From NCBI GenBank assembly GCA_965261285.1, contig OZ253457.1:2857396-2921395 (forward strand): a stretch of DNA of 64,000 nt, read 5' to 3'. Positions 19,960-43,089 of the stretch are shown piece by piece. The translations under genes were made by a program, and so were the position numbers. This DNA comes from Vicinamibacterales bacterium. Its GTDB lineage: Bacteria > Acidobacteriota > Vicinamibacteria > Vicinamibacterales > UBA8438. The notes below the pieces were generated by a model, which worked only from the letters and a program-made list of their open reading frames with translations, was not told the origin of the DNA and searched no databases. The first letter of the stretch is position 1, and each line of letters starts with the position of its first letter.

Positions 19960-21369
19960 CTACGCCACCTCCGCGCGTTGCACGCGCCTCGCGGCGAGCA
20001 GCCCCGCGCCAACCAGCCAGAGCCCCAGCACGAGGAGCGACAGGACCCGGTTGCCGAGGACCCAGCCCAGCGTCGGCGCGTCGTACTGCAGGGGCGGCAC
20101 CGCCGCCCAGAGCTCGGGCCCCGCCGTGTACAGCTCGCCGGTGCGGGAGTTCTCGGCGAGGTCGAGGTTCATCTGCCGCATCATGTCGCGGCGGTACGCC
20201 TCGGCCGCGGTCGCGAAGTGCCGGTGCTGCTCGACGTCGGTGCCGGCCAGCCCCATCGAGAGCGTGCGCACCGCGAGCAGCGGCGCCGCCACCGCGAGGG
20301 CCTCGTGCACGACGCCCTGGCGCTCGAAGGTGTCCCACAGCGCGCCGTAGTTGCGGTCGAAGATGCGGTTCCCGAACTCCTCGCTCTCCTGCAGGTAGAG
20401 CCCGACCTCGTTGACCGGCAGGTCCTCGGCCCGCTCCACGCCGTACTCCGCGAGGAGGCGCTCGCCGAAGGCGGCCCGGTCCGGGCGCTGGATGTCGTCG
20501 ACGCCGGCGGCCATCTCCTGCTCGAGGGTGTGGGCGAACTCGACCGCGGACGGCGTGGGATGGATCCACTTCGACAGGTCCACGGCGGCCCGCGGCGCCA
20601 CCAGCCCGTTCACCACCCAGACCCCCAGCAGGACCACCAGCGCGGTGCGCGCCGAGCGGGCCCAGGCCGACACCGCCAGCCCCAGCCCCACGAACGCGCC
20701 GAAGTAGGCCAGGTAGACGCCGGCCAGGACCGCGCCCCGGGCCAGGGGCGAAGCCGCCGGACCGGTGCTGCCGACCACGAGCGCGGCCGCGCCGACCACC
20801 GCCGCCGGCACCAGCAGCAGCGCGAGCGCACCGGCCACGCCCAGGGCCTTGCCCACGGCCAGCTCGCGCCGGCCGATGCCGGTGGCCAGCAACTGGCGCA
20901 GCGTGCCCTGCTCCCGCTCGCCGGCGAGGGCGCCGAACGTCAGCAGGATGACGAGCAGCGGCACGAGGTTCTGCAGGACCTGCGCCGCGGTCAGGGCCCC
21001 GACGCGCTGGGCGGCCGTCGCGTCCTGGGCCGGGCGCATGAGGAAGTCGTTCTGCCGGTGGGCCTCCAGCCACACCGACGTGCCCGTGTAGGGGTCGACC
21101 CCCTCGTCGACGAACGACAGGGCGAGGCGGGGCTTGAACGCGTAGATGCCGTAGTGGGCGGCCGAATGGGGGTTCTTCTCGCCCTGCGACTCCCAGTGGT
21201 CGCGGGCGGTGGCCTGCGCGGCCGCGAGCTCCTCCTCCGCCTGGCGCGCCTGGACCCAGCCATGTCCCAGCGAGACCAGGAGCAACGCCCCCACCAGGGC
21301 CGCGCACCAGCGGAAGCGGCCGTCCCGGACCACGTCGGTGAACTCCTTCCGGGCGATGTGCTTGATCAT
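19960..21369 (-). CDS. ABC-2 type permease, DUF3526-like (proximal copy)
   Basis: RBS aaggag precedes Met8 (MIKHIARKEFTDVVRDGRF). Contains GEREQGTLRQLLATG. Its stop is 2 nt from the next start. Confidence 0.8.
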   Translation of the reverse strand: MIKHIARKEFTDVVRDGRFRWCAALVGALLLVSLGHGWVQARQAEEELAAAQATARDHWESQGEKNPHSAAHYGIYAFKPRLALSFVDEGVDPYTGTSVWLEAHRQNDFLMRPAQDATAAQRVGALTAAQVLQNLVPLLVILLTFGALAGEREQGTLRQLLATGIGRRELAVGKALGVAGALALLLVPAAVVGAAALVVGSTGPAASPLARGAVLAGVYLAYFGAFVGLGLAVSAWARSARTALVVLLGVWVVNGLVAPRAAVDLSKWIHPTPSAVEFAHTLEQEMAAGVDDIQRPDRAAFGERLLAEYGVERAEDLPVNEVGLYLQESEEFGNRIFDRNYGALWDTFERQGVVHEALAVAAPLLAVRTLSMGLAGTDVEQHRHFATAAEAYRRDMMRQMNLDLAENSRTGELYTAGPELWAAVPPLQYDAPTLGWVLGNRVLSLLVLGLWLVGAGLLAARRVQRAEVA

Positions 21370-21422
21370 CGGTGACTCCTTCTCCGGCAACCGCAGCGAT
21401 GACCGCCGGGGTCATGCGACGG

Positions 21423-21700
21423 GCGCCGATCGCCGCCTTGGGGTAGTGATCGATGTGGATTCGCCGAACGCACGCGGACGCAGCCCGATCCGGGCTGTCT
21501 TCCGGGCTTGGCGCTTGGCAGGTCAGCTCTCGTCACCGGCCCCTACTCGTGCATGTGCTCCAGATGGATGCGCTCGAGAACCGACTCCTGACCCGGCAAC
21601 CGGGCCGAGCGACCGCGAACGTCCCGCCGCGGCCCCCGATTGCCGCCTTGTCCGCTACTCGTGCATGTGCTCCAGGTAGATGCGCTCGAGATCGGCGTGT
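21423..21700. repeat. tandem echo (about 112-bp period, 2 clear copies plus 1 decayed) of the 3' end of the ABC ATPase gene
   Basis: ctactcgtgcatgtgctccag occurs at 21543 (echo) and 21655 (functional stop). A decayed copy, tagtgatcgatgtgg, lies near 21444. gat(c/t)gccgccttg also recurs. Confidence 0.85.
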
Positions 21701-22428
21701 CCAATCTCGTCCGTGCTCATCTCGTTGACCAGGCGCCCGTGCCGCATGATGCCGACGCGGGTGCCGGTCTCCTTCGCGCGAAACAGATCGTGGGTCGCCA
21801 TGAGGACGGCGACGCCGCGGTCCCGGAGCCGCTCGAGCAGCTCGGAGAACTCGTTCGAGGCCTTCGGGTCGAGGCCCGACGTGGGCTCGTCGAGCAGCAG
21901 CGCGCCCGCCTCCTTGGCGATGGCGATGGCGATGCCGACCTTCTGCCGCATGCCCTTGGAGTACTCGGACACGCGCTGACCGACCGCGTCGGGGGGCAGG
22001 CCGGCGCCGACGAGGATGTCGGTCAGCCGGTCCGGGGCCAGCGCCCCCCCGCCGCCCAGGGCGGCGAAGTACTCCAGGTTCTCGAGGCCGGTGAGGTTGC
22101 GGTAGAGCATGACCTGCTCGGGGACGTAGGCCAGGCGCCGCTTCGACTCCAGAGGCTCGGCCGCGACGTCGAGGCCCATCACCCGCACGCTCCCCGCCGT
22201 CGGCTCGAGAAACCCCAGGAACAGGTGGATGGTGGTCGTCTTGCCGGCGCCGTTCGGGCCCAGCAGGCAGTAGATCTCGGACGGCCCGACGCGGAGATCG
22301 AGGCCGGTGACGGCCTCCGTGCTTCCGTATCGCTTGGACAGCCCGCGCGCTTCGAGCGCGGGCGCCGACGCGACCGCCGCAGGCGCAGCGGGCGCCGCCG
22401 GCGCCTCCATCGTCACAGCTTCGCTCAT
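21655..22428 (-). CDS. ABC transporter ATP-binding protein
   Basis: Walker A GPNGAGKTTT, signature-like YSKGMRQKV and Walker B ALLLDEPTSGLD. Confidence 0.9.
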   Translation of the reverse strand: MSEAVTMEAPAAPAAPAAVASAPALEARGLSKRYGSTEAVTGLDLRVGPSEIYCLLGPNGAGKTTTIHLFLGFLEPTAGSVRVMGLDVAAEPLESKRRLAYVPEQVMLYRNLTGLENLEYFAALGGGGALAPDRLTDILVGAGLPPDAVGQRVSEYSKGMRQKVGIAIAIAKEAGALLLDEPTSGLDPKASNEFSELLERLRDRGVAVLMATHDLFRAKETGTRVGIMRHGRLVNEMSTDEIGHADLERIYLEHMHE

Positions 22429-23065: not shown

Positions 23066-25441
23066 CTAGTGGAACCGCACCGCGTAGCCCAACCGGACCC
23101 CGCGGCCCATCTCGGGGGCTCGATCCTTGATGTACGACGTGTGGTTGCGATAGAGCGTGTTCGTCAGGTTGTAGCCCGTGAACGACAGGATGTGCGACAT
23201 GTCCTGCAGCGGCCAGACGTACGACGCGCGCAGGTTGACCACGGAATAGCCTTCGGTCTCGGTCTCGCCCCGGAACACGTCGGCCTGTCGCCCCGCGAGC
23301 TCCACTTGCGGGCTCAGCGTGAACCCGCCGTAGGGGATGTCGAGGTCCAGCGTGCCTCGCAGCGGCGGAATCCGCGGCAGCGCCTCGTTGGTCGTCGTCA
23401 GCCGCGCGTCGACGTACCCGAGGCCGAGCGTCAGCCAGGTCCGCCCCAGCCGGGTGCTGCCCCGGGCGTCGAAACCGGAGAAGCGGCTGTCGCCCTGCAG
23501 GATGTTGAACACCGGCAGGTTGTCGGCCACCGCCCCGCTGCGGTTGCCGAAGATGAAGTTGTCGATGTCGTACATGAAGAAGTTCAGCTCGCCCCGGACG
23601 CGGTCGCCGCGGTGCCGCAGGCTCACGTCCAGTCCGAGGGTGGACTCGGCGTCGAGGTCCGGGTTGCCGACGTCGAAGGAGAGCGTGCCGACGTGAGGAC
23701 CGAAGTTGTACAGCTCCTCGATGGCCGGCGCGCGGTAGGAGCGGGTCACGTTGGCGACCAGGGCGTTGCCGGCCCCGAGATCCGCGTGGAGTCCGACCGA
23801 CGCGGATGCGCCCTCGAAGCCGCGGTCGCGCGCGTGGGGCGCCTCGGGGTGCCCCCCGTGATCGTCGTGCCCGTCATCGTGATCGTCGTGCCCGTCATCG
23901 TGATCGTCGTGCCCGTCATCGTGATCGTCGTGCCCGCCGTGATCGTCGTGCGCGCCGCCGCCGCTGCGTTCCGCCACCTGGTAGTCGTCGCGGTCGACCC
24001 GACCGCCGAACTGCACGCGAAAGCGCCCCAGGCTCAGCTCTTCGTAGGCGAAGGCCGCGAAGGACGACAGGTCGGTCCGCGGCGCCAGCGCCTCGACTCC
24101 CGCGGCCTCGAAGTCCCGTATCTGCGTCCAGACGCCGAACTTCCCGGCCAGACGGGCCGTCTGGCGCTGGTCCAGGTCGGCGCGAACGATGTAGGTGCGG
24201 TTGTTGTAGCGGGTACCGACGCGCTGCTGCCCGCCCTCGCTCTCCAGCTCGTCATGGTGCCAATCCACGACGTTCAGGCTCAGGCGCGCTCCCTCGACGA
24301 AGCGGTTGTCGAGGTCCTGGAGACCGATGTCGAACCGCCCGGCGCGGCGCTGCCAGTCGAGCGAGATCGCCGTCTCGCCATGGTCGTCCTCGTGCCCGCC
24401 GGGCTCGCCGTGGTGTCCGTGGAACTCGCCCGCGAACGGCACCCCGTAGCGGCCGCCGTTCGACGTCACCCCGGCGCTCGCGAAGAGCCGGTCGCCCGAC
24501 CAGCCCACCCCGGCCCGCACGGTGCTCGACTCGGTGGCGGAGTTCTCCACGGTCCCCTCGGGCGTGGCGTAGTCGTCCGTCCGCCGCGTGCCGCCGCCGG
24601 CCCAGTAGTGCACGCCGTTCCGCGCGTGTTGCAGGCCGAAGTTGCTGCCGGCCTGCGCGTTCGCGCTCCCCAGGTCGGCGCTGAACTGCGCCCGCGTGCC
24701 GTCGAGCAGCGACTCGCGGTAGCTCTCGTGGGGCGTGATCACGTTCACGACCCCGCCGACCGCGTTCGGGCCGTACAACAGCGTCGCCGGCCCGCGCACG
24801 ATCTCGATGCGTTCCGCGCTGTCGGGGTCGACCGCGACGCCATGGTCGCCGGACTCGCTCGACAGGTCTCCGGTGCGGACGCCGTCCTCCAGGACCAGCA
24901 CCCGGTCGCCGTCGAAGCCGCGGATGATCGGCCGGCTCGCGCCGGGGCCGAAGCCGCGGATCGCAATGCCCGGCTCGTTCCGAAGAACGTCTTCGAGGCC
25001 GGCGGCCGACTCTCTCGCGATGTCGAACGCGTCCACGGTGGTGACCGCGTTGAACGCCTCGAACGTCGTCTCGGTTCCGCCCGCCGAGGCGGTCACGGTC
25101 ACGTCCTCGCGAACGGGCGAGAGTCCGAGCACGAAGTCCACCGCCGCGTCCCCGCCTGGATCGACCTCCACCCTCTGCCGCCCCGCGGTCACGTGCTCGC
25201 GTTGCGCGAGGACCTCGTAGGAGCCGGCCGGCACGCCGTCGATGACGAACCGTCCCAGCTCGTCGCTCAACGTGTACCTGCCCGTGCCCACGACGAGGAC
25301 CACCGCGCCTTGAACGACGGCGTCTTCCTGCAGTGTCACCGTGCCGTGCACCCTGCCGGTCTCCTGGGCAAGGACCGGCGCCGCGGCGAGAACGACCATC
25401 GACGCCGCTGCACGAACACCTGTTGCTGTCAATCGGTACAT
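23066..25441 (-). CDS. TonB-dependent outer-membrane receptor with N-terminal carboxypeptidase-regulatory-like domain and His/Asp-rich loop
   Basis: Signal peptide. CarbopepD_reg-like GRVHGTVTLQ...GRFVIDGVPAGSYEV. Plug with IEIVRGPATLLYGPNAVGGVVNVIT. Barrel ending GYAVRFH. Internal HDDHGGHDDHDDGHDDHDDGHDDHDDGHDDHGGH. Confidence 0.9.
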   Translation of the reverse strand: MYRLTATGVRAAASMVVLAAAPVLAQETGRVHGTVTLQEDAVVQGAVVLVVGTGRYTLSDELGRFVIDGVPAGSYEVLAQREHVTAGRQRVEVDPGGDAAVDFVLGLSPVREDVTVTASAGGTETTFEAFNAVTTVDAFDIARESAAGLEDVLRNEPGIAIRGFGPGASRPIIRGFDGDRVLVLEDGVRTGDLSSESGDHGVAVDPDSAERIEIVRGPATLLYGPNAVGGVVNVITPHESYRESLLDGTRAQFSADLGSANAQAGSNFGLQHARNGVHYWAGGGTRRTDDYATPEGTVENSATESSTVRAGVGWSGDRLFASAGVTSNGGRYGVPFAGEFHGHHGEPGGHEDDHGETAISLDWQRRAGRFDIGLQDLDNRFVEGARLSLNVVDWHHDELESEGGQQRVGTRYNNRTYIVRADLDQRQTARLAGKFGVWTQIRDFEAAGVEALAPRTDLSSFAAFAYEELSLGRFRVQFGGRVDRDDYQVAERSGGGAHDDHGGHDDHDDGHDDHDDGHDDHDDGHDDHGGHPEAPHARDRGFEGASASVGLHADLGAGNALVANVTRSYRAPAIEELYNFGPHVGTLSFDVGNPDLDAESTLGLDVSLRHRGDRVRGELNFFMYDIDNFIFGNRSGAVADNLPVFNILQGDSRFSGFDARGSTRLGRTWLTLGLGYVDARLTTTNEALPRIPPLRGTLDLDIPYGGFTLSPQVELAGRQADVFRGETETEGYSVVNLRASYVWPLQDMSHILSFTGYNLTNTLYRNHTSYIKDRAPEMGRGVRLGYAVRFH
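23859..23955. repeat. about 4.5 x 21-bp in-frame tandem repeat encoding the (G)HDDHDD loop of TBDR 1
   Basis: The unit gtgatcgtcgtgcccgtcatc starts at 23859, 23880, 23901 and 23922, with a partial copy at 23940. Confidence 0.9.
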
Positions 25442-26563: not shown

Positions 26564-27514
26564 ATGTCGCGTCTTCGCGGAGAACCGCTCGTCTCTCGAT
26601 GCATGGCCGCCAGCGCGCTGCTGGCCGGATTCATGGCCGGCGCAACGGCCACCCGCGCGCAGGCCCAGGAAGCGGCCGATCAGCCCTTCATGGCGGGCGC
26701 GCCGCTCGACCTGTCGTCGAACGCCAGGACCTTCGGCGGCTTTCGCTTCGCCGAGAGCATGGCCTACGACGAGGCGCGCGACCTGTACGTCGCGGTCAAC
26801 GCCGGAATCGCCCAGGACGTCATCCCGAACGACGGCTACATCTCGCTGATCAACCCCGACGGCTCGGCCCACACGCTGAAGTGGATCGGCGTCGACCGGA
26901 ACGGCCTGACCCTGAACCACCCCCTCGGCAGCGACATCGTCAACGGCCTGCTGTACGTGGCCGACATCAACGTCGTGCGCTGGTTCGACATGGAGAGCGG
27001 CGAGCCGCGGGGCAGCGTCGTCGTCGAGGACGCGCAGCGGTTCAACGACATCGAGGTCGCCGAGGACGGGACCATCTGGGCCACCCAGACCGGGACCGAG
27101 GAGAGCGCCACCTGGCGCGTGTACCGCATCGGGCCCGACGGCGACTCGTCGGTCGTGGTCGAGGGCGCGCCCCTCGCCCGGCCCAACGGCGTCGCCTTCG
27201 ACCCCGACGGCAACATCGTCGTCGTGAACATCAACGACAACGCGGTGCTCACGTTCTCGCCCGACGGCGAGCTCGTCGCGACCGAGCACGCGGTGGACGG
27301 CGGCAACGACGGGCTGGTGATTCTGGACGACGGCACGAAGTACGTCTCCAGCGTCCGGATCGGCACCGTCTCGCGCATCCGTCCGGGGGAGGAAGCGGAG
27401 GTCGTGGCGTCCGGCATCCCGAGCGCCGCCTCGATGGCCTACGACTCGAAGCGGAACCGGCTGCTCATCCCGATGAACAACTGGAACGCCATCACCATCG
27501 TCGAGCTCGACTGA
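26564..27514 (+). CDS. secreted SMP-30/gluconolactonase/NHL-like six-bladed beta-propeller protein
   Basis: RBS ggaggag with ATG 26564. It has a signal peptide. Contains PNGVAFDPDGNIVVVN and repeated blade-like segments. The stop is 30 nt before CobN-like 1. Confidence 0.7.
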   Translation: MSRLRGEPLVSRCMAASALLAGFMAGATATRAQAQEAADQPFMAGAPLDLSSNARTFGGFRFAESMAYDEARDLYVAVNAGIAQDVIPNDGYISLINPDGSAHTLKWIGVDRNGLTLNHPLGSDIVNGLLYVADINVVRWFDMESGEPRGSVVVEDAQRFNDIEVAEDGTIWATQTGTEESATWRVYRIGPDGDSSVVVEGAPLARPNGVAFDPDGNIVVVNINDNAVLTFSPDGELVATEHAVDGGNDGLVILDDGTKYVSSVRIGTVSRIRPGEEAEVVASGIPSAASMAYDSKRNRLLIPMNNWNAITIVELD

Positions 27515-27544: not shown

Positions 27545-30500
27545 ATGACTGCCACGACAAGACCGACACGAGTGCGGACGGTGCGGACGCGACTGGCCGA
27601 CCTGTGGTCCTATCGCAGGCGCATCCTGGCCGCGGCGCTCGCGGCGGCGGTGCTCTGGGGCGGGTTCGCCGCCTACCAGCGCCATCTCGCGGTGACCCGG
27701 GTCGCCTTCGTCAACTTCCCCGGATTCCAGCTCGCCCGCATCGAGCGCGCGCGCCCGCACGGCGCGGTGCGCATCGAGCCGCTGGACATGGCGGCGCTGG
27801 ATCGCGCCGCCGACTATCCCGTCGTCTACGTCTTCGGGCGCGGCCTGCAGCTCGACGAGACGCAGCTCGAGCACCTGCGCGAGGCCGGCCGCCGCGGGAC
27901 GCGCCTGTTCGTGCAGGGGGCCACGAACCCGGCCCTCGACGTCACCAACCTGCGCGGCACGCAGCTCGACGCGGCCAACGGCTACCTCGAGTTCGGGGGG
28001 GCCGAGAACTACGCCCGGCTGCTCAACTTCTCGCGCGTGGAGCTCGACGGCAAGCCGTTCCGGTCGGACGCGGTCGAGCCTCCCGTCGAGCGGTCCATGG
28101 ACGTGCTGTTCCACCTCGACGACGACCTGACGTTCGAGACCGTCGACGCGTTCGACGCCTACTACGACGCGCAGGGGCTCGCCAAGCCGGACGCCCCGAA
28201 GATCGCCCTCATCACGAGCGTGCCCGGCCCCTTCAACGCCAACCGGGACCACGTCGACGCGTTCATCCGCGCCCTCGAGGGCCGCGCGTGGAACGTCTAC
28301 CCGATGGCCAGCGCCGAGAAGCGCCTCGACTTCCTCAAGCGCATCGACCCCGACCTCGTGGTGCTGATGCCGCACGGGCGGCTCACTCTCGGCCGCGCCG
28401 ACGAGGCCATCGCGTGGCTGCGCGAGCGCGACATCCCGATGCTGACGCCGGTGTCGGTGTTCCAGAACCACGACGACTGGGTGACCGACCAGCAGGGCAT
28501 GGCGGGGGCCATGCTCACGATGAGCGTCGTCCTGCCCGAGCTCGACGGCGGGGTGGCCCCCTACGCGGTGGCGGCGCAGTTCACCGACGCGGACGGCTAC
28601 GAGATCTTCGACGCGCTGCCCGAGCGCCTCGAGACCTTCTGCGACCTCGTCGAGGGCTGGCTGACATTGAAGGCGAAGCCCAACCGCGACAAGCGGGTGG
28701 CCATCTACTACTACAAGGGACCGGGCAAGAACGCCATGAACGCCGGCAGCCTGGAGGTGGCGCCGAGCCTGCTCAACCTGCTGCGCTCGCTGCGCGACGC
28801 CGGCTACACGGTCGAGGGGCTGCCGGAGACCGACGACGAGTTCTGGGAGATGGTCCAGGCGAAGGGGCCGGTGCTCGGACCCTACGCGCGCGGAGCGTTC
28901 GAGGAGTACGTGGCCACCGGCGATCCGGCCCTGGTGCCGGCCGGCGACTACGCCGCGTGGGTGGAGGCGGACCTCGAGCCGGGCATGCGCGACGCCGTCG
29001 TCGAGCAGTACGGCCCCGCCCCCGGCGAGTACATGACGGTCGGCGAGGGCGAGGAGACGGCGCTGGCCGTCGCCCGCGTGCAGTTCGGCAACGTCGTCAT
29101 CCTGCCGCAGCCCCTGCCGGGGGCCGGCGACGACACGTTCCGGCTCGTGCACGGCGCGCGGAAGGCGCCGCCGCACCCCTACGTCGCCTCGTACCTGTGG
29201 ACCCGCAACGCCTTCGGGGCCGACGCGGTGATGCACTTCGGCACCCACGGCAGCCTGGAGTTCACGCCGTGGAAGCAGATTGCCCTGTCGGCCTTCGACT
29301 GGGCGGACGCCCTCGTCGGCGGGCTCCCGCACGTCTACGTCTACGTCATGAGCAACGTCGGCGAGGGCATCATCGCCAAGCGCCGCTCCTACGCGGCCAC
29401 GGTGACCCACCTGACGCCGCCGTTCATGGAGGGCGGGCTGTACGACGGGCTGCGCCCGCTGCGGGACCGGCTCGACAGCTTTCGCAACGCGGCCGACGGC
29501 CCGGTGCGGGCCGAGCACGCGCGCACGGTCCGGCGCCTCGCGACGGAGATGAACCTGCACGTGGACCTCGGCCTCGACCCCGACGCGGCGTGGTCGGCGG
29601 ACGAGATGTTCCGCCTGAGCAACCACGTCGAGACCATCGACGGGGAGAAGGTCACGCAGGGGCTCTACACCCTCGGCAGCGCCTTCACGCCGGACGAGGT
29701 CGACTCGACGGCGGAGCTGATGGCCATCGACCCCATCGCCTACGCCCTCGCCCGCATCGACACCGTCAAGGGCGCGGTCGAGGCCGCCGACCTCGAGGAC
29801 GAGGCGTACTTCGAGCGCCGCTACCGCCGGCGCGCCCGCGACGCCTACGCGCGGCGGATCGCGGGCGCGAACGCCGGGGCGGTGCTCGCCGACCTCGTGG
29901 CGGACGCGGACGTGCAGCACGCCCACGCCTGGCGCGAGGCGTCGCGGCGGCCGTCGGACGACGACATCATCCGCGGCTTCATCTCGATGGGGGCGGGCGG
30001 ACGGAGCCGGCCGGACGCCGCGGTGGCGGAAGCCCGCGCGGGCGAGCTCGAGGACCTCGTGGCGCGCGTCCTGCCGCACCCGCGGAAGGTGGAGTTCGTC
30101 GAGCGGCTGCAGTCGGAGCAGGAGTTCGCGCGGACGTCGCAACTGCTCGATCCGGTGCAGCGCGAGCGCGCCAGGACCATCGCCGCGGTCATCCCGCCGA
30201 TGGCCGAGGCGCTCGAGATCGCCGACGACCCGGACGTGTTCGCGCTGCTCGAGGCCATGCAGGACGAGGCCCTCCGCGAGCGGACGTTCGCGCTGCTGGA
30301 CGACCCGGGGCTCGTCGACCGCGTCGAGGAGGAGAAGCGCCGGCTGGCGTCGGAGCGGCTGGCGTTCGCCCTCGAGGCGCCGCAGGTCGACGCCCTCGGG
30401 CTGGCCTGGGGCCACGAGTCGGCCGGCGAGCTGGAGAGCGTTCCCAGCAAGGACATCGAGGGGGCGCTCTCGGCGGTGGCCTTCTACCGGGAGCACCGCG

Positions 30501-32332
30501 CGACGCTCCGCGACCAGCTTCACGACGTCGACGCGCCGGCCGCGGATCGCCTGCGGAAGATCCTGGACGACCCGGCGTTCGACCCGCGCCTCGCCGCCGC
30601 CGCCGACGCCGCCGGCGTCGAGCTGGAGGCGCGCGCGGCCCGCGACGCCGAGCTGGCCCGGGCGGTGCTGACGCTGGAGACGAGCGTGGGCGGCATCGAC
30701 CGGCACCGAAAGGGCCTGCGCGACAGCTCGGACCTCGAGCTCGAGAGCGTGGCGCGGGGCCTCGCCGGCGGCTACGTCGAGCCCACGCCGGGGGGCGACC
30801 CCATCGTCAACCCCGATGCCGTCCCCACCGGGCGCAACCTCTTCTCCATCGACGCCGAGAAGACGCCGTCGCCGGAGGCGTGGACGGTGGGGCGCGGCCT
30901 GGCGGAAGCGCTCCTCGACGAGCACCGGCGGCGCCACGACGCGTATCCCCGGAAGGTCGCGTTCACCCTCTGGCCCAGCGACTTCATCGGCACGGAGGGC
31001 GCCACCATCGGCCAGATCTTCTACCTGCTCGGGGTCGAGCCGGTGTGGGACCCGTTCGGGCGGGTCGCCGACCTGCGGCTGATGCCCGCCGCCGACCTCG
31101 GAAGGGCCCGCATCGACGTCGTGGTCCAGACCGCCGGCCAGCTCCGCGACCTCGCCGCCTCGCGCCTCGCCCTCATCAACCGCGCCGTCGCCATGGCGGC
31201 CGAGGCGCGCGACGCCGAGGCCAACTTCGTGCAGGAGGGGCGGGTGCGCGCCGAGGAGGTGATGATGGCCAGGGGCCTCTCCCCCGCCGACGCGCGGCGC
31301 TACTCGACCCTGCGCGTCTTCGGCGGCGTGAACGGCAACTACGGCACCGCCATCATGGGAATGGTCGAGAGCGGCGACCGCTGGGAGGACGACGCCGAGG
31401 TCGCCGACCAGTACCTCCGGAACATGGGCGCCGTCTACGACGAGGGCGAGCTGTGGAGCTTCTACGCCGACGGCATCTTCGAGGCGGCCCTCGCCGGCAC
31501 CGAGATCGTCGTGCAGCCTCGGGAGAGCCACACCTGGGGCGCGTTGAGCCTCGACCACGTCTACGAGTTCATGGGCGGGCTGAGCATGGCCGTCCGCCAC
31601 GTCACCGGCCGCGACGCCGACGCCTACTTCAACGACTTCCGCAACGCCCAGCGGCCGCGGGTGACGGACCTCACCGAGACCGTCTGGACCGAGGCGCGGT
31701 CGACGCTGCTGAATCCCGCCTACATCGGCGAGATGCAGGAGGGCGGCGCCTCGTCGGCCGAGCAGTTCGCCGAGACGTTCCGCAACACCTACGGCTGGAA
31801 CGTGATGAAGCCGGCCGCGATCGACGACGCGCTCTGGAACGAGCTGTACGAGGTGTACGTCGACGACCGCCACGACCTCGGGGTCCACGACTTCTTCCGG
31901 CGGGAGAACCCGTACGCCCTGCAGGAGATGACGGCGGTGATGCTGGAGACGGTGCGCAAGGGCCTGTGGGAGGCCACCGCGCAGCAGGTGGCGGTGCTCG
32001 CGGAGCTGCACACCCGGCTGGTGGAGGAGTTCGAGGCGGGCTGCAGCGGGTTCGTCTGCGACAACGCGGCCCTCGCGTCGTTCATCGCCGAGCAGGCCCC
32101 GGCGGAGCTGGCGGCCGCCTACCGCAGCGAGCTGCAGCGCAACCTGACCACGAGCGTCGAGCTGACCGAGGCGAGCGTGGTCCTGGCCGCGCAGGACGCG
32201 GAGCCGCGGCCGGCCGACGCGCCGGCGAGCCGGCCGGGCCCGGCGCGCCTCGCCTGGCTGGGCGCGATCGTCGTGGCGGGTCTGTTCGCGACGGCGCTGC
32301 TCGTCCTGCGGCGGCGGCGGAGCACGAGCTGA
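27545..32332 (+). CDS. CobN/Mg-chelatase-H-like giant protein 1 (1595 aa) with N- and C-terminal transmembrane anchors
   Basis: CobN family blocks VAIYYYKGPGKNAMNAG, VMHFGTHGSLEFTPWKQ and GGYVEPTPGGDPIVNPDAVPTGRNLFSIDAEKTPSPEAW. N-terminus RRRILAAALAAAVLWGGFAAY. C-terminus LGAIVVAGLFATALLVLRRRRSTS. Confidence 0.9.
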   Translation: MTATTRPTRVRTVRTRLADLWSYRRRILAAALAAAVLWGGFAAYQRHLAVTRVAFVNFPGFQLARIERARPHGAVRIEPLDMAALDRAADYPVVYVFGRGLQLDETQLEHLREAGRRGTRLFVQGATNPALDVTNLRGTQLDAANGYLEFGGAENYARLLNFSRVELDGKPFRSDAVEPPVERSMDVLFHLDDDLTFETVDAFDAYYDAQGLAKPDAPKIALITSVPGPFNANRDHVDAFIRALEGRAWNVYPMASAEKRLDFLKRIDPDLVVLMPHGRLTLGRADEAIAWLRERDIPMLTPVSVFQNHDDWVTDQQGMAGAMLTMSVVLPELDGGVAPYAVAAQFTDADGYEIFDALPERLETFCDLVEGWLTLKAKPNRDKRVAIYYYKGPGKNAMNAGSLEVAPSLLNLLRSLRDAGYTVEGLPETDDEFWEMVQAKGPVLGPYARGAFEEYVATGDPALVPAGDYAAWVEADLEPGMRDAVVEQYGPAPGEYMTVGEGEETALAVARVQFGNVVILPQPLPGAGDDTFRLVHGARKAPPHPYVASYLWTRNAFGADAVMHFGTHGSLEFTPWKQIALSAFDWADALVGGLPHVYVYVMSNVGEGIIAKRRSYAATVTHLTPPFMEGGLYDGLRPLRDRLDSFRNAADGPVRAEHARTVRRLATEMNLHVDLGLDPDAAWSADEMFRLSNHVETIDGEKVTQGLYTLGSAFTPDEVDSTAELMAIDPIAYALARIDTVKGAVEAADLEDEAYFERRYRRRARDAYARRIAGANAGAVLADLVADADVQHAHAWREASRRPSDDDIIRGFISMGAGGRSRPDAAVAEARAGELEDLVARVLPHPRKVEFVERLQSEQEFARTSQLLDPVQRERARTIAAVIPPMAEALEIADDPDVFALLEAMQDEALRERTFALLDDPGLVDRVEEEKRRLASERLAFALEAPQVDALGLAWGHESAGELESVPSKDIEGALSAVAFYREHRATLRDQLHDVDAPAADRLRKILDDPAFDPRLAAAADAAGVELEARAARDAELARAVLTLETSVGGIDRHRKGLRDSSDLELESVARGLAGGYVEPTPGGDPIVNPDAVPTGRNLFSIDAEKTPSPEAWTVGRGLAEALLDEHRRRHDAYPRKVAFTLWPSDFIGTEGATIGQIFYLLGVEPVWDPFGRVADLRLMPAADLGRARIDVVVQTAGQLRDLAASRLALINRAVAMAAEARDAEANFVQEGRVRAEEVMMARGLSPADARRYSTLRVFGGVNGNYGTAIMGMVESGDRWEDDAEVADQYLRNMGAVYDEGELWSFYADGIFEAALAGTEIVVQPRESHTWGALSLDHVYEFMGGLSMAVRHVTGRDADAYFNDFRNAQRPRVTDLTETVWTEARSTLLNPAYIGEMQEGGASSAEQFAETFRNTYGWNVMKPAAIDDALWNELYEVYVDDRHDLGVHDFFRRENPYALQEMTAVMLETVRKGLWEATAQQVAVLAELHTRLVEEFEAGCSGFVCDNAALASFIAEQAPAELAAAYRSELQRNLTTSVELTEASVVLAAQDAEPRPADAPASRPGPARLAWLGAIVVAGLFATALLVLRRRRSTS
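30696..32332. repeat. 1.64-kb dispersed repeat (copy 1): near-identical 3' portions of the two CobN-like genes
   Basis: Colinear with 40541-42177 at a constant offset of 9845 nt, checked at 30696/40541 and 31791/41636. Long runs are identical by eye, whereas the upstream gene parts are clearly more diverged. Confidence 0.85.
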
Positions 32333-32575
32333 CGCGGGCGCGCCGACCGTCGGCGCATCCCGCGATGAACGGTTCGGAATTCGCGACGGTGCTGCTCGTC
32401 CTGCGGAGACGGCCGAGCACACCGGACGCGGGCGCGCGCCGACCGTCGGCGCATCCCGCCATGAACGGTTCGGGACTCGCGACGGCGCTGCTCGTCCTGC
32501 CGGAGACGGCCGAGCACACCCTAACCGGGCGCGCGCCGTTGGTGCACCCCGCGACGAACGGTTCGGGATCTGGAG
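32296..32575. repeat. 3 x ~95-bp tandem echo of the CobN-like 1 3' end and the downstream spacer
   Basis: gctgctcgtcctgc starts at 32296, 32391 and 32487. gatgaacggttcgg also recurs. The last unit runs into the RBS of the next gene. Confidence 0.9.
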
Positions 32576-32581
32576 AACATC

Positions 32582-34867
32582 ATGCGACGCATCTCTACCA
32601 CGGCCGCCGTCCTGGCGGTCATCCTCGCCGCCGGACCGGACGACGGCGGCGTGTCCACGCACGCACAGTCCCCCCTGTCGCCGGGCCCGCCGCCCGAGAC
32701 CGCACCTCCCCTTCCGCACGCGTCGTCGGACACGTCCGGGGCATGGGTCGGCGACGTCCTCTACGTACATGCCGGAGAGCAGCCGCCCGCCTCCGGCACC
32801 CCCGAAGGCACAGGAAGGGCGGCTCTCTACGCGCTTTCCCCGGGCGACGCGTCCTGGGAGACGGTCTGGACCGGCGACCCGCTACGCGGGGCCGTGCTCG
32901 TCGGCGACGGCGAGCACCTCTACCGCGTGGGCGGGGCCGAGGTCGCCGGCGCGCGGCGCGCCCGCCCCGACCTCGAGCGCTGGGACCGGGGTGACCGGCG
33001 GTGGGTCGGCCTGACGCCGATGCCGTCGGGCCGGACGGACCACGCGGCGGTGGTCGTCGGACGCGAGCTCTGGGTGATCGGCGGGTGGGCGCCCTCGACC
33101 GTGGCCGAGGGCCGCGCTGCGCGTCGTCGTCCGCCCCCCGTGCCGGCCGAGGACTGGCGCGGCGACGTGCTCGTCGCGGACCTCGACGCGGATCCCGTGG
33201 CCTGGACCGTGGTCGAGACGGCGTCCCTGCGCATGCACTCCCTCGTCGCGACGGTCCACGGCGACGCCATCTGGGTGACCGGGGGCATGACGCCCCGCGG
33301 GCCGGGGCTCGAGGCGCACCGGCTCGACCTGCAGACCCGGACCCTGGCGCCGGCGCCGACGCCGCCCGTGTCCGGCCGCGGCCGGGGCGCCGGACTGGGC
33401 ATCGCCTCGGCCGGGGGGAGTCTGTTCGCGAGCGACGCGAACCAGTTGTTCCGCCTCGACGAGGACGCCGGGGCCTGGCAGGTGCTCGCCTACGACATCC
33501 GGCCGGATCGCGCGTACCACGCCCTGGTCGGCGGGCCGGGCGTGCTGCACATCGTGGGGGGAGCCTCGCACGGCCGGATCCATGCGGTCGTCGACCGGGT
33601 CGCGACGGCTTCGCTCCGGCCGAGCGACGTCGCCGACGCGCCGCGGCGCGCGGCGGGCGCGGCCGGCGACCGGCCTCCCCTGGCCGGCGCCCGGCGCTGG
33701 GCCGGCTTCCGGGGGCCGGCGTTCGGTCACAGCCAGGCCCGCAACCTCCCGCTGACGTGGTCGGACGAGGAAGGCGTCGCGTGGCGGCACGCGGTCGGGG
33801 GCTACGGCCAGTCGAGCCCCGTCGTCTGGGACGGCGTCGTGTTCGTCACCGCCATCGACGGCCCGCTTCGCGAGACGCAGATCGTCGAGGCGGTCGACGC
33901 CGAGACCGGCGCGCTGTGGTGGCGCCACACCCTGGCGTCGAGCCAGCCCGTCGAGGTCACGAACATCGTGGCGAAGGGCGCGCCGACGCCCCGCGTCGAC
34001 GCCGAGCGCGTCTACTACCTGTTCGAGAGCGGCGATCTGGGTGCCCTGGGCCACGACGGCGAGCCCGTCTGGTCCCGGTCGCTGAAGGCGGACTACGGCG
34101 CCCTCGAGGGCTACGGGCTGGGCAGCTCGCTCGCCGGCAACGGCGAGGCGCTGTTCGTCCTCGCCGCCCACGACGGGCCGTCGTACCTGCTGGCCGTCGA
34201 CCCCGCCACCGGCGAGACGCGGTGGAAGGCGGACCGCCCCCCGACGTCGTCCTGGACGACGCCGATCGTCGTGCCCGGCAGCGGCGGCGACCTCGTCGTG
34301 GTCAGCGTCGACGGCGCGGTCGAGGCGTACGACGGGCGGACCGGCGAGCGGGTCTGGTGGATCGACGGCCTCTCGGGCAACCGGCTCCCGTCGCCGGTCG
34401 TCGCGGGGCCGCGCATCGTCGTCCCCTCGATGGACTCGCGGTCCGTTCTCGCCCTGCCGATCGAGCACCGCGGGCGCGTGGCGGACGAGCACGTGCTCTG
34501 GCGCGGCCAGAGCGCGACGGCGGGGATGTCGTCGCCGGTCGTGACCGGCGAGGCGATCTGCTTCACCAACTCGCTGGGCGTCCTCCGCTGCCTCGAGACG
34601 AGGTCGGGCCGGTCGCGGTGGGCGGTCCGCCTGGGGTCGCCCGCGTGGGCCACGCCGATCGTCAACGGAGACCGCGTCTACCTGTTCGGGAACGACGGCG
34701 TGACCTCGGTCTTCGCCGCCGACGCGGCCGAGCCCATCGAGCTGGCCAGGAACCCGCTGACCGTCTCGGAGCGGCTGTACGGGGTCGCCGCCGTCGACGG
34801 CGCGTTCTTCGTCAGGACCGGCCGGGAGCTCATCCGCATCGGGCGCAGCGGGGCAACCCGGGACTGA
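32582..34867 (+). CDS. secreted double beta-propeller protein (Kelch-like N-terminal half, PQQ/BamB-like C-terminal half)
   Basis: Signal peptide. Kelch-like LYRVGG...RTDHAAVVVGRELWVIGGW. The second half has SSPVVWDGVVFVTA, ETGALWWRH, TGETRWKAD, TGERVWWID and SGRSRWAV. Confidence 0.8.
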   Translation: MRRISTTAAVLAVILAAGPDDGGVSTHAQSPLSPGPPPETAPPLPHASSDTSGAWVGDVLYVHAGEQPPASGTPEGTGRAALYALSPGDASWETVWTGDPLRGAVLVGDGEHLYRVGGAEVAGARRARPDLERWDRGDRRWVGLTPMPSGRTDHAAVVVGRELWVIGGWAPSTVAEGRAARRRPPPVPAEDWRGDVLVADLDADPVAWTVVETASLRMHSLVATVHGDAIWVTGGMTPRGPGLEAHRLDLQTRTLAPAPTPPVSGRGRGAGLGIASAGGSLFASDANQLFRLDEDAGAWQVLAYDIRPDRAYHALVGGPGVLHIVGGASHGRIHAVVDRVATASLRPSDVADAPRRAAGAAGDRPPLAGARRWAGFRGPAFGHSQARNLPLTWSDEEGVAWRHAVGGYGQSSPVVWDGVVFVTAIDGPLRETQIVEAVDAETGALWWRHTLASSQPVEVTNIVAKGAPTPRVDAERVYYLFESGDLGALGHDGEPVWSRSLKADYGALEGYGLGSSLAGNGEALFVLAAHDGPSYLLAVDPATGETRWKADRPPTSSWTTPIVVPGSGGDLVVVSVDGAVEAYDGRTGERVWWIDGLSGNRLPSPVVAGPRIVVPSMDSRSVLALPIEHRGRVADEHVLWRGQSATAGMSSPVVTGEAICFTNSLGVLRCLETRSGRSRWAVRLGSPAWATPIVNGDRVYLFGNDGVTSVFAADAAEPIELARNPLTVSERLYGVAAVDGAFFVRTGRELIRIGRSGATRD

Positions 34868-35119: not shown

Positions 35120-35401
35120 ATGACGAAGCCGAGCCGGCCCATCGCATCCGCGGCCTTGGTGCTGGCGTGCGTCCTGCTGCCGGCCGGCTTCCTCTCGCAC
35201 GGACACGACGACCGCGATCTCGACGGCCACGATCACGACTGCATCGTCTGCTGTCTCCTCGACCATCCCACCCTGGCGACGGCGGCCGAGCCCGCGCCGG
35301 CGGCGCCGGCCGCGCTGGCGCCTGGCGCCGCTTCGGCCCGCCGCGGGCGCGTCTTGCGGACCGCGCTCGACCCGCACCTCCCCCGCGGGCCGCCCGCCTG
35401 A
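35120..35401 (+). CDS. small exported Cys/His protein, R-G-P-P-A C-terminus (family B, copy 4)
   Basis: MTKPSRPIASAALVLACVLLPAGFLSHGHDDRDLDGHDHDCIVCC...LPRGPPA. It lies immediately upstream of TBDR 2. Confidence 0.6.
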   Translation: MTKPSRPIASAALVLACVLLPAGFLSHGHDDRDLDGHDHDCIVCCLLDHPTLATAAEPAPAAPAALAPGAASARRGRVLRTALDPHLPRGPPA

Positions 35402-38112: not shown

Positions 38113-41100
38113 ATGACGGAAGCGACGAGACGGACGGGCACGCTATTGCGTCTCTTCGGGCCCGCGGCGCGCCGGAGGACGATTCTGCTGGCCGTCCTCG
38201 CGCTGGCCGCGATCGGAACCGCGGCCGGGATCTACCGGCACTTCCTCGCGCCGACCCGGATCGCGTTCGTCAACTTCCGGGGCGTCCAGCTCGCCCGGCT
38301 CGAGAGGGCCCGCGGAGACCAGGCGGTCCGCATCGAGCCGCTCGCCCTCGACGCCCTCCATCGCGCGGCGTCCTACCCGGTCGTGTTCGTGCACGGGCGC
38401 GGGCTGGAGCTGCAGGAGACGCACATCGAGCAGCTTCGCGAGGCGGGGCGGCGCGGCTCACGGCTGTTCGTTCGCGGCGTATCGAACCCCGAGCACGACG
38501 TCACCAACCTGGGGGGGCGGCAGCTCGAGCACGTCGGCGGGTACTTCCGGTTCGGGGGCACGGAAAACTACGCCCGGCTGCTCAACTTCTCCCGCGCCGA
38601 GCTCGACGGCAAGGCGTTCCGGTCGGATCCGGTGCAGCCTCCCGCCGAGCGGGCGATGGACGTGCTCTTCCACCTCGACGACCGCCTGACGTTCGAGACC
38701 GTCGACGCCTTCCGCGCCCACTACGAGGAGCAGGGACTGGCCAAGCCGGGGGCCCCGACCATCGCGCTTCTCACCAGCGTGCCCGGCCCCTTCAACGCGA
38801 ACCGGGACCACGTCGATGCGATCATCGAGGCCCTCGAGGCACGCCAGTGGAACGTCTTCCCGATCGCGAGCAACGACAAGCGGCTCGATTTCCTGCAGGC
38901 GATCGAGCCGGATCTCGTGGTCCTGATGCCCCACGGCCGCCTCTCCCGGGGACGCTCGCGCGAGGCGATCGCGTGGCTCCAGGAGCGGAACATCCCGATG
39001 CTGACGGCCCTGTCCGTCTTCCAGAACCACGACGAGTGGGTCGCCGACCAGCAGGGCATGGCCGGCGGCCTGCTGACCCTCAGCGTGGTGCTGCCCGAGC
39101 TCGACGGCGGGGTCGCGCCCTACGCGGTGGCGGCGGAGTTCGAGGACGAGTACGGCTACGAGATCTTCGACGTGATACCCGAGCGGCTCGAGGTCTTCTG
39201 CGACCTCGTCGAACGGTGGCTGGCCCTGAAGGCCACGCCCAACCGCGACAAGCGCGTGGCCATCTACTACTACAAGGGCCCCGGCAAGAACGCGATGGTC
39301 GCGAGCAACATGGAGGTCGCGCCGAGCCTCCTGAACCTGCTGCGCACGCTGCGCGACGCCGGCTACACGGTCGAGGGGCTGCCGGAGACCGAGGACGAGT
39401 TCTGGGAGATCATCCAGGCGCAGGGGCCGGTGCTCGGGCCGTACGCGCGCGGGGCGTTCGAGGAGTACGTGGCCGAAGGGGACCCCGCCCTCGTGTCCGC
39501 CGCCCAGTACGCGGAATGGACCGAGGAGCACCTCGAGCCGGCGATGCGCGAGGCGGTGGCCGCGGCGTACGGGCCCGCCCCCGGGGAGTACATGACGGTC
39601 GGCAGCGGCGACGACGACGCCATCGCGGTCGCCCGCGCGCAGTTCGGCAACGTGGTCGTCCTCCCGCAGCCGATGCCGGGGGTGGGCGACGACACGTTCC
39701 GCCTCGTGCACGGGACGCTCGAGGCGCCGCCGCATCCCTACGTGGCGTCGTACCTGTGGACCCGGCGCGCGTTCGAGGCCGACGCGGTGATGCACTTCGG
39801 CACCCACGGGAGCCTGGAGTTCCGGCCCTGGAAGCAGATTGCCCTGTCGTCGTTCGACTGGTCGGACGCCCTCATCGGCGGGATCCCGCACGTCTACCTC
39901 TACATCATGAGCAACGTCGGCGAGGGCATCATCGCCAAGCGGCGTTCCTACGCGGCCACCGTCACCCACCTCACCCCGCCCTTCATGGAGGGCGGCCTCT
40001 ACGAGGGGCTGCGCCCGCTGCGCGACCGGCTCGACCGCTACCGCAACACGGCGGACGGCCCGGTGAGGGCGGAGCACGCCAGGACCATCCGGCGCCTCGC
40101 CGCGGACATGGACCTGCACGTGGACCTCGGCCTCGACCCCGAGGGCGCCTGGTCCGACGACGACTACTTCCGCCTGAGCAACCACGTCGAGACGATCGAC
40201 GGGGCGAAGGTCGTGCAGGGCTTCTACACGCTGGGCGAGGCGTTCAACGACGACGAGATCCACGGGACGGCGGAGCTGATGGCGATCGACCCGATCGCCT
40301 ACGGCCTCGCCCGCATCGACATCGCCAAGGGCGTGGCCAAGAGCGACATCCTCGACGACGCGGCGCTCTTCGAACGCCGCTACCGGCAGACCGCGCGGCG
40401 GGCCTACGCGCGGCGGGCGGGCGGAGAGAGCGTCGAGGCGGTGCTGTCGGACCTCGTCTCCCCGGCCGACCTCGAGCAGGCCCACGGGGAATCGAAGCTC
40501 GCGGATCCGCTTCTCGTGCTGAAGGCGGGCGTCGCCGGCGTCGACCGTCACCGGAAGGGCCTGCGCGACAGCTCGGACCTCGAGCTCGAGAGCGTGGCGC
40601 GGGGCCTCGCCGGCGGCTACGTCGAGCCCACGCCCGGGGGCGACCCCATCGTCAACCCCGACGCCGTCCCCACCGGGCGCAACCTCTTCTCCATCGACGC
40701 CGAGCAGACGCCGTCCCGGGAGGCGTGGACGGTGGGGCGCAGGCTGGCCGAGTCTCTCCTCGACGAGCACCGGCGGCGCCACGACGCCTGGCCCCGGAAG
40801 GTCGCGTTCACCCTCTGGCCGACCGACTTCATCGGCACCGAGGGCGCCACCATCGGCCAGATCTTCTACCTGCTCGGGGTCGAGCCGGTCTGGGACCCGC
40901 GCGGGCGGGTCGGCGACCTCCGCCTGATTCCCTCGGCCGACCTCGGCCGGCCCCGCATCGACGTCGTGGTCCAGACCGCCGGCCAGCTCCGCGACCTCGC
41001 CGCCTCGCGCCTCGCCCTCATCAACCGCGCCGTCGCCATGGCGGCCGAGGCGCGCGACGCCGAGACCAACTTCGTGCAGGAGGGACGGCTGCGCGCCGAG

Positions 41101-42177: not shown

Positions 42178-42440
42178 CGCCCGGAAGCCATGGAGGCGGT
42201 ACTCGACGTCGTCGCCGGAACCGGCGTGGTCCTGCTCCCGTTGCTCGCGCTGCTCGTCCTGCGCCGACGGCAGAGCACGACCTGACGCGTGGAAGCCATG
42301 GAGGCGGTACTCGACGTCGTCGCGGGAACCGGCGTGGTGCTGCTCGCGCAGCTCGTCCTGCGAAGGCGGCGGAGCACGACCTGACGCGTGGAAGCCATGG
42401 AGGCGGTACTCGACGTCGTCGCCGGAACCGGCGTGGTCCT
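42140..42440. repeat. 3-unit tandem echo (108 and 99 bp) spanning the CobN-like 2 stop and the start of the next gene
   Basis: TGA occurs at 42175, 42283 and 42382. ATGGAGGCGGTACTCGAC occurs at 42190, 42298 and 42397. The two upstream copies form in-frame chimeric mini-ORFs of 31 and 28 aa. Confidence 0.9.
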
Positions 42441-43089
42441 GCTCCTGCTGGCGGCGGCGTCCGTCGACCGGCGGTGGGCGCGGGGGCTGGCCGTGGCCGC
42501 GGTCGCCGCCGCCGTCTACGCCCTGCACCCGCTCGCGGTGCGTCAGAGCCTGACCGCGTTCGTCGGCGGGCTCGACGGCGCCGGCGTCCAGACGCTGGCC
42601 GCCCTGCTCGCGTTCGACGGCGTGCTCGGCTGCGGCGGAGTCGCCCTCCTGCTCGGGGCCCGGCACGGCCGGCGGCTGCGCTGGTTCGAGCGGCTGGCGG
42701 CGCGCCACGTCGGGATCATCCCCGCGCCGGCCCTGTTCTACGTGGAGGTGAAGGCGTTCCACGCGGCGTCGGGGTGGACCTTCTCGACCACCGCGCTCGC
42801 GCTGTGCCTCGCCGTCGTCGTCGCGGGCATGGGCGGCAGCGAGGCGATTCGGCGGCTGCTGCCGGACCGGGACCTCCGGGCCGAGCTGCGCCTGCTCGTG
42901 CACGTCGGGCAGGTGGTGCTCGCGGCCGGACTGACCGCGTTCGCGCTGCAGGGGGGAGTTCGGAGCCCCGGGGCCGCGGTCGAGGCCGGGCCCCTCGCCG
43001 TCGTCGCCGCCGCCGCGGCCCTCGGCATCCTCGCCGGCTACTGGAGCCATCGCCGGCGCCTGCGCCGCCTCGCGGACCTGGGACGATGA
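42397..43089 (+). CDS. polytopic inner-membrane protein, unknown family
   Basis: MEAVLDVVAGTGVVLLLLAAA... It has several hydrophobic helices and ends WSHRRRLRRLADLGR. I recognised no motif. Confidence 0.6.
   Translation: MEAVLDVVAGTGVVLLLLAAASVDRRWARGLAVAAVAAAVYALHPLAVRQSLTAFVGGLDGAGVQTLAALLAFDGVLGCGGVALLLGARHGRRLRWFERLAARHVGIIPAPALFYVEVKAFHAASGWTFSTTALALCLAVVVAGMGGSEAIRRLLPDRDLRAELRLLVHVGQVVLAAGLTAFALQGGVRSPGAAVEAGPLAVVAAAAALGILAGYWSHRRRLRRLADLGR

Follow-up and report, generated by a model that had tools for sequence, protein, structure and literature searches.

Two large open reading frames (ORFs) from a Vicinamibacterales genome (Acidobacteriota, 72% GC) raise the question of how a protein with the fold of a metal chelatase may operate outside the cytoplasm, and on which substrate. 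They are located in a stretch of 64,000 nucleotides (contig OZ253457.1 of assembly GCA_965261285.1, positions 2,857,396 to 2,921,395 of the forward strand), which is referred to here as the window and whose nearest relatives are metagenome-assembled genomes of Vicinamibacterales (L001/OZ242003.1 at 97%). An earlier note on this DNA had described both products as CobN-like proteins anchored at their two ends, with cytoplasmic termini and a periplasmic body that has no access to ATP. The present analysis agrees with this description and gives the proteins another name: they are probably reverse chelatases of the HmuS type, HmuS1 and HmuS2, doubly anchored in the membrane and encoded in an uptake cluster resembling hmuR-S-T-U-V, with heme as the most likely substrate. 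The double-anchored, periplasm-facing and ATP-independent layout was already published for HmuS in 2025-2026 and, hence, is not a discovery. New here are the two-paralog cluster of Acidobacteriota, a widespread clade that is mislabelled as CobN and lacks Met79, the Met-rich insertion (MRI) and HmuY, and a folded helical insertion.

The two genes and their main structural features are located as follows.

27545-32332, plus strand: HmuS1, HmuS-like paralog 1 of the long form, 1595 amino acids (Pfam CobN-Mg_chel, E=1e-291)
27623-27679, plus strand: N-terminal membrane helix of HmuS1, residues 27-45, with 8 Arg ahead of it (hydropathy)
29930-30631, plus strand: domain IV insertion of HmuS1, 234 amino acids, residues 796-1029 (boundaries from the HmuS1/HmuS2 alignment)
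32249-32305, plus strand: C-terminal membrane helix of HmuS1, residues 1569-1587, followed by LRRRRSTS (hydropathy)
38113-42177, plus strand: HmuS2, HmuS-like paralog 2 of the short form, 1354 amino acids from ATG 38113 (Pfam CobN-Mg_chel, E=3e-299)
38179-38235, plus strand: N-terminal membrane helix of HmuS2, residues 23-41 (hydropathy)
42094-42150, plus strand: C-terminal membrane helix of HmuS2, residues 1328-1346, followed by LRRRRSTT (hydropathy)

The GC content at third codon positions (GC3 of 0.97-0.98) marks both ORFs as genuine genes. The start of HmuS2 at ATG 38113 is backed by the N-termini of homologs and by a GAGGAG ribosome-binding site; an in-frame GTG upstream of it (38056) was also considered and is unlikely to be the start. 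Hydropathy analysis (Kyte-Doolittle, 19-residue window, threshold 1.4) revealed one hydrophobic segment at either end of each protein and no other. These segments are transmembrane (TM)-like; the ORF coordinates and the peptides quoted in the earlier note proved to be exact. The segments enclose a body of 1523 amino acids in HmuS1 and 1286 in HmuS2. Arginine clusters occupy the terminal sides of both helices, where the positive charges had been placed before: eight Lys and Arg residues precede the N-terminal helix in HmuS1 and six in HmuS2, with two in either protein among the 15 residues past it, and the tail beyond the C-terminal helix, LRRRRST(S/T), carries four, with three and two, respectively, among the 15 residues ahead of this helix.

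The same architecture is common in the family. A general lack of the helices among homologs, which the note had named as an outcome that would speak against anchoring, was not observed: in a set of 118 proteins of at least 1300 amino acids, taken from a collection of 5.8 billion proteins, a hydrophobic segment was found at the N-terminus of 115 and at the C-terminus of 116 (approximately 97% share the layout), and internally in none. Hydrophobic ends also recur in the proteins translated from the 78 genomic loci used as a comparison set, which belong to Acidobacteriota, Bacteroidota, Proteobacteria, Planctomycetota, Verrucomicrobiota and Lentisphaeria. The charge bias is family-wide as well: of 78 scorable homologs, 73 have more Lys and Arg residues, and 77 a higher net charge, on the terminal than on the body-facing sides of the helices. 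The sequences of the terminal helices are weakly conserved in the homolog consensus, as would be expected for plain anchors.

An N-in/C-in topology with the body in the periplasm is, therefore, supported by the positive-inside rule together with the gene context (outer membrane receptors, a MotA/ExbB protein, beta-propellers with signal peptides), both termini being predicted to be cytoplasmic. Export via the Tat pathway was also considered, owing to the RRRIL (HmuS1) and RRTIL (HmuS2) motifs ahead of the first helix, and was rejected as a family feature because the twin Arg is not conserved: close homologs have HRKR or RHRK in this region, and the heads of Bacteroidota proteins are Lys-rich.

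The CobN-Mg_chel family (PF02514) covers the whole body of HmuS1 and HmuS2, and their homologs are named 'cobaltochelatase subunit CobN' in public databases. This label is unsupported: neither protein reaches the equivalog cut-offs of NCBIfam, the scores being about half of them (666 versus 1248 for the best CobN model and 611 versus 829 for BchH), and the best solved-structure match is HmuS. Among all PDB sequences the top match of HmuS2 was the HmuS heme dechelatase of Bacteroides thetaiotaomicron (9D26/9P4S, 1225.7 bits), 3.3-fold stronger than the matches to ChlH (368 bits) and CobN (340-355 bits). The alignment with 9D26 extends over HmuS residues 11 to 1460 of 1463 and, thus, takes in both terminal helices and the basic tail; the C-terminal helix of HmuS2 pairs with the helix and the KRRK tail of 9D26 (VGIAVIIVILALILFVRKRRKS versus LGAALAAGLFVLALLVLRRRRS). 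Between 23 and 47 kb of the window no AAA+ gene is present, be it of the CobS/T or the ChlI/D type, and the sole VWA protein of this interval (45578-46744, minus strand) is multi-TM, weakly BatA-like and not a ChlD-type partner.

According to Nath et al. (EMBO J 2025, PMC12583661), HmuS strips iron from heme anaerobically, producing protoporphyrin IX and Fe(II), in a reaction that needs NADH in vitro and, unlike those of CobN and ChlH, no ATP; the H538A variant is inactive. Helices at the two termini were predicted to anchor the protein; both were cut away for the cryo-electron microscopy construct, and the truncated soluble HmuS of B. thetaiotaomicron turns over heme with NADH alone (PMC12583661). 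A study of Porphyromonas gingivalis HmuS published in 2026 (PMC13227078) reported an inner-membrane location and proteinase-K-accessible periplasmic exposure in Escherichia coli, described CobN and ChlH as having no such terminal helices, and suggested a membrane electron chain as the in vivo reductant. In Bacteroides fragilis, the use of heme iron requires two CobN-like paralogs, BtuS1 and BtuS2 (PMC6460266). The proposal of a chelatase-fold body without access to ATP agrees with this published description of HmuS, and the cluster itself encodes no AAA+ partner.

The residues of the catalytic cleft (site 2) were located in B. thetaiotaomicron HmuS numbering by pairwise alignment, and the family columns were taken from an alignment of 70 sequences. 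Both proteins carry HFGTHG, equivalent to B. thetaiotaomicron residues 534-539, in which the catalytic His538 (His568 in HmuS1 and His565 in HmuS2) is found; this motif is invariant in more than 70 sequences. Both also carry LSLDHVYEFMGG, corresponding to LSLDHxxEFMGG, where the columns of His1209 and Glu1212 are invariant in more than 70 sequences (His1338 and Glu1341 in HmuS1, His1097 and Glu1100 in HmuS2). The equivalent of Glu577 is conserved too. In site 1, the equivalent of the heme ligand His254 is kept within the PHGRL of both proteins (His277 in HmuS1, H274-G275-R276 in HmuS2), and the His-Gly-Arg triplet is invariant in a smaller alignment of 14 homologs.

The genes belong to a plus-strand cluster of the hmuR-S-T-U-V type, which spans 26.5 to 44.5 kb and contains, besides the second HmuS paralog, two beta-propeller genes. 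The neighbouring genes are listed below.

23066-25441, minus strand: TBDR1, the second TonB-dependent receptor, divergent (Pfam; NCBIfam ZnuD and heme-receptor families)
26564-27514, plus strand: exported SGL/NHL (ScyE-like) beta-propeller (Pfam SGL; NCBIfam ScyD/ScyE family; signal-peptide-like N-terminus)
32582-34867, plus strand: exported double beta-propeller (Kelch and PQQ-like), located between HmuS1 and the HmuS2 unit (Pfam PQQ_2 and Kelch)
35120-35401, plus strand: small DUF2946 ORF, 93 amino acids
35530-37959, plus strand: TBDR2, HmuR-like TonB-dependent receptor, directly upstream of HmuS2 (GC3 frame plot and translation; Pfam Plug and barrel)
42397-43089, plus strand: HmuT-like integral membrane protein, 230 amino acids, about 6 hydrophobic segments (hydropathy)
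43449-44099, plus strand: HmuU-like proton-channel protein of the MotA/TolQ/ExbB family (Pfam MotA_ExbB, E=1e-9)
44150-44497, plus strand: HmuV-like DUF2149 protein, 115 amino acids, one N-terminal membrane helix (Pfam DUF2149, E=3.4e-30)
45578-46744, minus strand: multi-TM VWA-domain protein, weakly BatA-like, conserved at that spot in close relatives

Where the flanks are long enough, nearly all of the 78 loci have the same order, an HmuS homolog followed by a gap of approximately 0.7-0.9 kb, the place of HmuT, and then by a MotA/ExbB gene and a DUF2149 gene, and this order holds in the hmu operons of gut Bacteroidales as well; in a few loci the MotA/ExbB and DUF2149 genes immediately precede the HmuS homolog. 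The HmuU-like protein is 38-58% identical to the product of the same-position gene beside HmuS homologs across phyla, and the HmuV-like protein is 50-66% identical between phyla with conserved synteny. For the HmuT-like protein, no Pfam or NCBIfam family match was obtained, and weak syntenic tblastn matches were found in Bacteroidota loci (e.g. L008 and L026).

TBDR2, which starts at GTG with a GGAGG site, contains FRAP-(x14)-His-(x8)-NPDL boxes, and its best NCBIfam model is TonB-hemin (206 bits, below the cut-off). TBDR1 has YRAP-His-NPDL boxes and its best NCBIfam score is that of ZnuD; its link to the HmuS cluster is uncertain. In the literature, heme receptors have FRAP and NPNL boxes on either side of a His, and HmuR has NPDL (PMC3832793). 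The SGL/NHL propeller gene, located immediately upstream of HmuS1, is co-located with HmuS in L004, L024, L025 and L040, and the Kelch and PQQ-like propeller is kept beside HmuS genes in Vicinamibacterales loci. The two exported propellers might stand in for the missing hemophore HmuY. The DUF2946 ORF lies just upstream of TBDR2 and has a His/Cys-rich stretch, HGHDDRDLDGHDHDCIVCC. No cluster protein contains a CxxCH motif, which was sought as a sign of a periplasmic electron donor, and the cluster lacks a TonB gene. Regulation by cobalamin was considered and rejected, as an Rfam scan at gathering thresholds found no B12 riboswitch or other Rfam element in the whole window.

Taken together with the chemistry known for HmuS of B. 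thetaiotaomicron and P. gingivalis, these features would be consistent with the following mechanism. HmuS may be inserted by the Sec machinery, with the N-terminal helix as a signal-anchor and the C-terminal one as a stop-transfer helix, which would leave the body in the periplasm and the Arg-rich termini in the cytoplasm. The substrate, a metallotetrapyrrole that is most likely heme, probably reaches the periplasm through a TonB-dependent receptor with heme boxes, and HmuS would bind it there in the central cleft, which has an invariant histidine on either side. By analogy with the characterised enzymes, the iron would be reduced and released as Fe(II) and the porphyrin protonated to protoporphyrin IX, with no ATP and no AAA+ motor involved. 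Fe(II), and perhaps the porphyrin too, would then be imported. The adjacent six-TM HmuT and the MotA/ExbB-DUF2149 pair (HmuU/V) appear to be obligate genomic partners in this process.

Several observations weigh against this interpretation. In both proteins Arg (R99 in HmuS1, R96 in HmuS2) takes the place of Met79, which together with His254 is an axial ligand of the non-substrate heme and which Nath et al. counted among the defining features of the family (PMC12583661), and Gln299 is replaced by Met in HmuS1 and by Leu in HmuS2. Identity to B. thetaiotaomicron HmuS is only 39% over residues 11-745 (735 aligned N-terminal residues). The disordered MRI (B. thetaiotaomicron residues 780-898) is absent from HmuS2, which has 71 residues and no Met between the anchor columns, while at the same position HmuS1 has its insertion of 234 amino acids with 3 Met only. 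A complete six-gene hmuYRSTUV operon, the MRI and Met79 were listed among the features of the HmuS family (PMC12583661); here the operon is incomplete, as R, S, T, U and V follow in order and HmuY was not detected among the cluster ORFs in Pfam and NCBIfam scans. Neither Feo nor any other Fe(II) importer was noticed among the genes of the window. NADH, the reductant used in vitro, is cytoplasmic, which puts the periplasmic source of electrons in question. Finally, Vicinamibacterales live aerobically in soil, while the work that characterised HmuS presented it as an anaerobic strategy.

Some of these departures are not peculiar to the window. In the 70-sequence alignment, Arg in the Met79 column marks a clade including Vicinamibacterales, Sphingobacterium, Cytophagales, Cupriavidus, Pseudomonadales and others, and among the 14 diverse homologs of the smaller alignment, mostly from the Arg clade, Arg accounts for at least 90% of the residues in this column. 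The column is occupied by Met in gut Bacteroidales and Victivallales, and by His in Alistipes, Opitutales and Algisphaera. A separate combination was observed in loci L070, L071, L073 and L075-L077 (Bacteroides cellulosilyticus and other Bacteroidales), with Arg in the Met79 column, Met in the His254 column and an insertion of 32-47 amino acids; this subgroup might represent a second, BtuS-like type of paralog, or the pattern might come from an alignment shift. The insertion of HmuS1 was modelled by AlphaFold2 (AF2) as a confident all-helical structure (mean predicted local distance difference test score of 89), for which Foldseek found no PDB match with E below 0.1. It is conserved among long-form homologs and, in a phmmer search of 1.84 billion representatives, turned up only inside such homologs or their fragments. 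HmuS1 and HmuS2 fall outside bona fide HmuS as defined in the literature and belong to a variant sister clade with the same architecture, catalytic cleft and T-U-V partners.

Given these departures, the same architecture might serve a job other than heme de-chelation: the substrate might be another metallotetrapyrrole (a corrinoid or a Mg-, Zn- or Ni-porphyrinoid), the reaction might be metal exchange or insertion, or the protein might be a periplasmic heme chaperone feeding HmuTUV. The replacement of the site-1 ligand Met79 by Arg across a clade of mostly environmental taxa and the missing MRI and HmuY are in line with this possibility, as are the 186 bits scored by TBDR2 on a B12-receptor model, against 206 on TonB-hemin and below the cut-off for both. 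In addition, most non-anchor clusters of the superfamily were not reliably annotatable according to Nath et al. (PMC12583661), and a chaperone role was left open by the P. gingivalis study (PMC13227078). Such a change of function is nevertheless unlikely, because His538, His1209, Glu1212 and Glu577 of site 2 and the cleft motifs are invariant, both receptors have heme-receptor boxes, the window is free of cobalamin riboswitches, and the T-U-V partners are those of proven heme systems. A still more speculative suggestion, to which little probability can be given, is that in the clade with Arg79 and without the MRI the AAA+ motor was replaced by one driven by the proton motive force, HmuU/HmuV and HmuT acting on the tethered HmuS rather than, or besides, on the receptor. 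If true, this motor would drive conformational cycling or the delivery of electrons and protons for periplasmic metal removal or exchange, possibly with non-heme substrates. The linkage of S, T, U and V over at least six phyla, with HmuV as conserved among them as described above, and the lack of a TonB gene in the cluster speak for it, but the TM helices of HmuS are as weakly conserved as those of simple anchors, and the truncated soluble enzyme of B. thetaiotaomicron needs only NADH for turnover.

Two other explanations concern the membrane segments themselves. The N-terminal segment could be a cleaved signal peptide, the mature protein being held by the C-terminal tail anchor only; the body would still be periplasmic, so that this variant is compatible with an HmuS-type reverse chelatase. 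Close to its end the helix does have small residues (GFA|A in HmuS1, GTA|A in HmuS2), but a clear AxA site is missing, the conserved domain I strand Y-x(4)-APTRIAFVN follows without a break, and the helix was modelled as an anchor in both HmuS papers (PMC12583661, PMC13227078), all of which makes cleavage improbable. That HmuS1 and HmuS2 are ordinary cytoplasmic CobN subunits working with an AAA+ motor, with terminal hydrophobic stretches that are incidental or a topology that is inverted, is extremely unlikely and has been largely refuted. Such an assignment could draw on the database labels, on the Pfam family common with CobN and on the VWA-domain gene nearby. The equivalog scores and the far stronger HmuS match contradict it, however, as do the absence of CobS/CobT- or ChlI/ChlD-type AAA+ genes from the cluster, the multi-TM, BatA-like nature of the VWA protein, which is encoded on the opposite strand, the charge bias, which favours termini-in, and the operon context of outer-membrane uptake. 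HmuS-type reverse chelatases, thus, remain the preferred identification.

As for the origin of the two paralogs, the arrangement of the window is common to L001, L002, L003, L017, L022 and L059, and a single long-form HmuS gene lies directly ahead of T-U-V in L011, L025 and L040; the existence of such relatives indicates that the two-paralog arrangement is a lineage-specific duplication. HmuS1 and HmuS2 are 75% identical in their N-terminal halves and 91% in their C-terminal halves (30632-32332 versus 40477-42177), with the nucleotide identity reaching 99% around HmuS1 codons 1430-1480, and the higher identity of the 3' halves suggests recent gene conversion between them. A tandem array of three copies (84-87% matches) is located at the end of each gene.

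32285-32566, plus strand: tandem array at the end of HmuS1, period 96 bp, 3 copies
42134-42453, plus strand: tandem array at the end of HmuS2, period about 105 bp, 3.1 copies

The repeated unit consists of the last ten or so codons (ending in LLVLRRRRST), the stop codon and approximately 55 bp downstream of it. At the end of HmuS2 the unit includes the start of HmuT, which results in two chimeric mini-ORFs (MEAVLDVVAGTGVVLL, ending in LVLRRRQSTT before the stop). Related Vicinamibacterales genomes have, at the ends of the corresponding genes, one to three copies of a motif shared by the repeat units, the copy number being variable.

Several other genes of the window were noted. An ABC-2/DUF3526 permease and an ABC ATPase (19960-22428, minus strand) adjoin TBDR1. 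A large pyrroloquinoline quinone (PQQ)-dependent dehydrogenase of 1022 amino acids (57495-60563, minus strand) and a MazF/PemK toxin gene (60863-61207, plus strand) have no relation to the HmuS genes.

A chelatase-fold enzyme outside the cytoplasm, away from ATP, is the hallmark of HmuS, which lets bacteria extract heme iron without oxygen. With a complete R-S-T-U-V cluster and two paralogs in soil Acidobacteria, the system reaches beyond the gut and oral Bacteroidota, and relatives in several other phyla carry the misleading label "cobaltochelatase CobN", so that many database annotations need correcting. These relatives form a clade without the Met79 heme ligand and the MRI, both proposed as family hallmarks. 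A clade lacking Met79, the MRI and HmuY allows what is essential (terminal anchors, the bis-His cleft, T-U-V) to be told apart from traits restricted to particular lineages (the cytochrome-like site 1, the MRI, HmuY). The result helps to delimit the essential core of the family and to re-annotate its members, and will be no surprise to a specialist.

Among known systems, the window proteins may be compared with the HmuS of Bacteroidota (B. thetaiotaomicron, P. gingivalis), with which they share the chelatase fold, the terminal helices with basic tails, HFG(T/A)HG, LSLDHxxEFMGG and His254-Gly-Arg, as well as the neighbours HmuR, HmuT, HmuU (MotA/ExbB) and HmuV (DUF2149) in the same order. The presence of two paralogs in a single genome resembles BtuS1/BtuS2 of B. 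fragilis. Unlike Bacteroidota HmuS, the proteins of the window have Arg for Met79, Leu or Met for Gln299 and no disordered Met-rich insertion, their cluster has two beta-propeller genes and no detected HmuY, and the host is an acidobacterium of high GC content rather than a gut or oral anaerobe.

Likeness to CobN, ChlH and BchH is limited to the Pfam family, the overall six-domain fold and the His of HFGxHG, which is conserved superfamily-wide. The canonical members are soluble cytoplasmic proteins that perform ATP-driven metal insertion with an AAA+ motor (CobS/T, ChlI/D), whereas HmuS1 and HmuS2 have two membrane anchors each and no motor genes nearby, and the HmuS-specific LSLDHxxEFMGG motif sets them further apart. 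The nearest counterparts of HmuS1 are uncharacterised long-form 'CobN' homologs of approximately 1570-1600 amino acids from Cytophagia, Gamma- and Betaproteobacteria and Planctomycetota, which it matches in length, in Arg at the Met79 position, in the helical insertion and in both anchors. HmuS2 is a short derivative of this long form without the insertion, found mainly in one sub-lineage of Vicinamibacterales.

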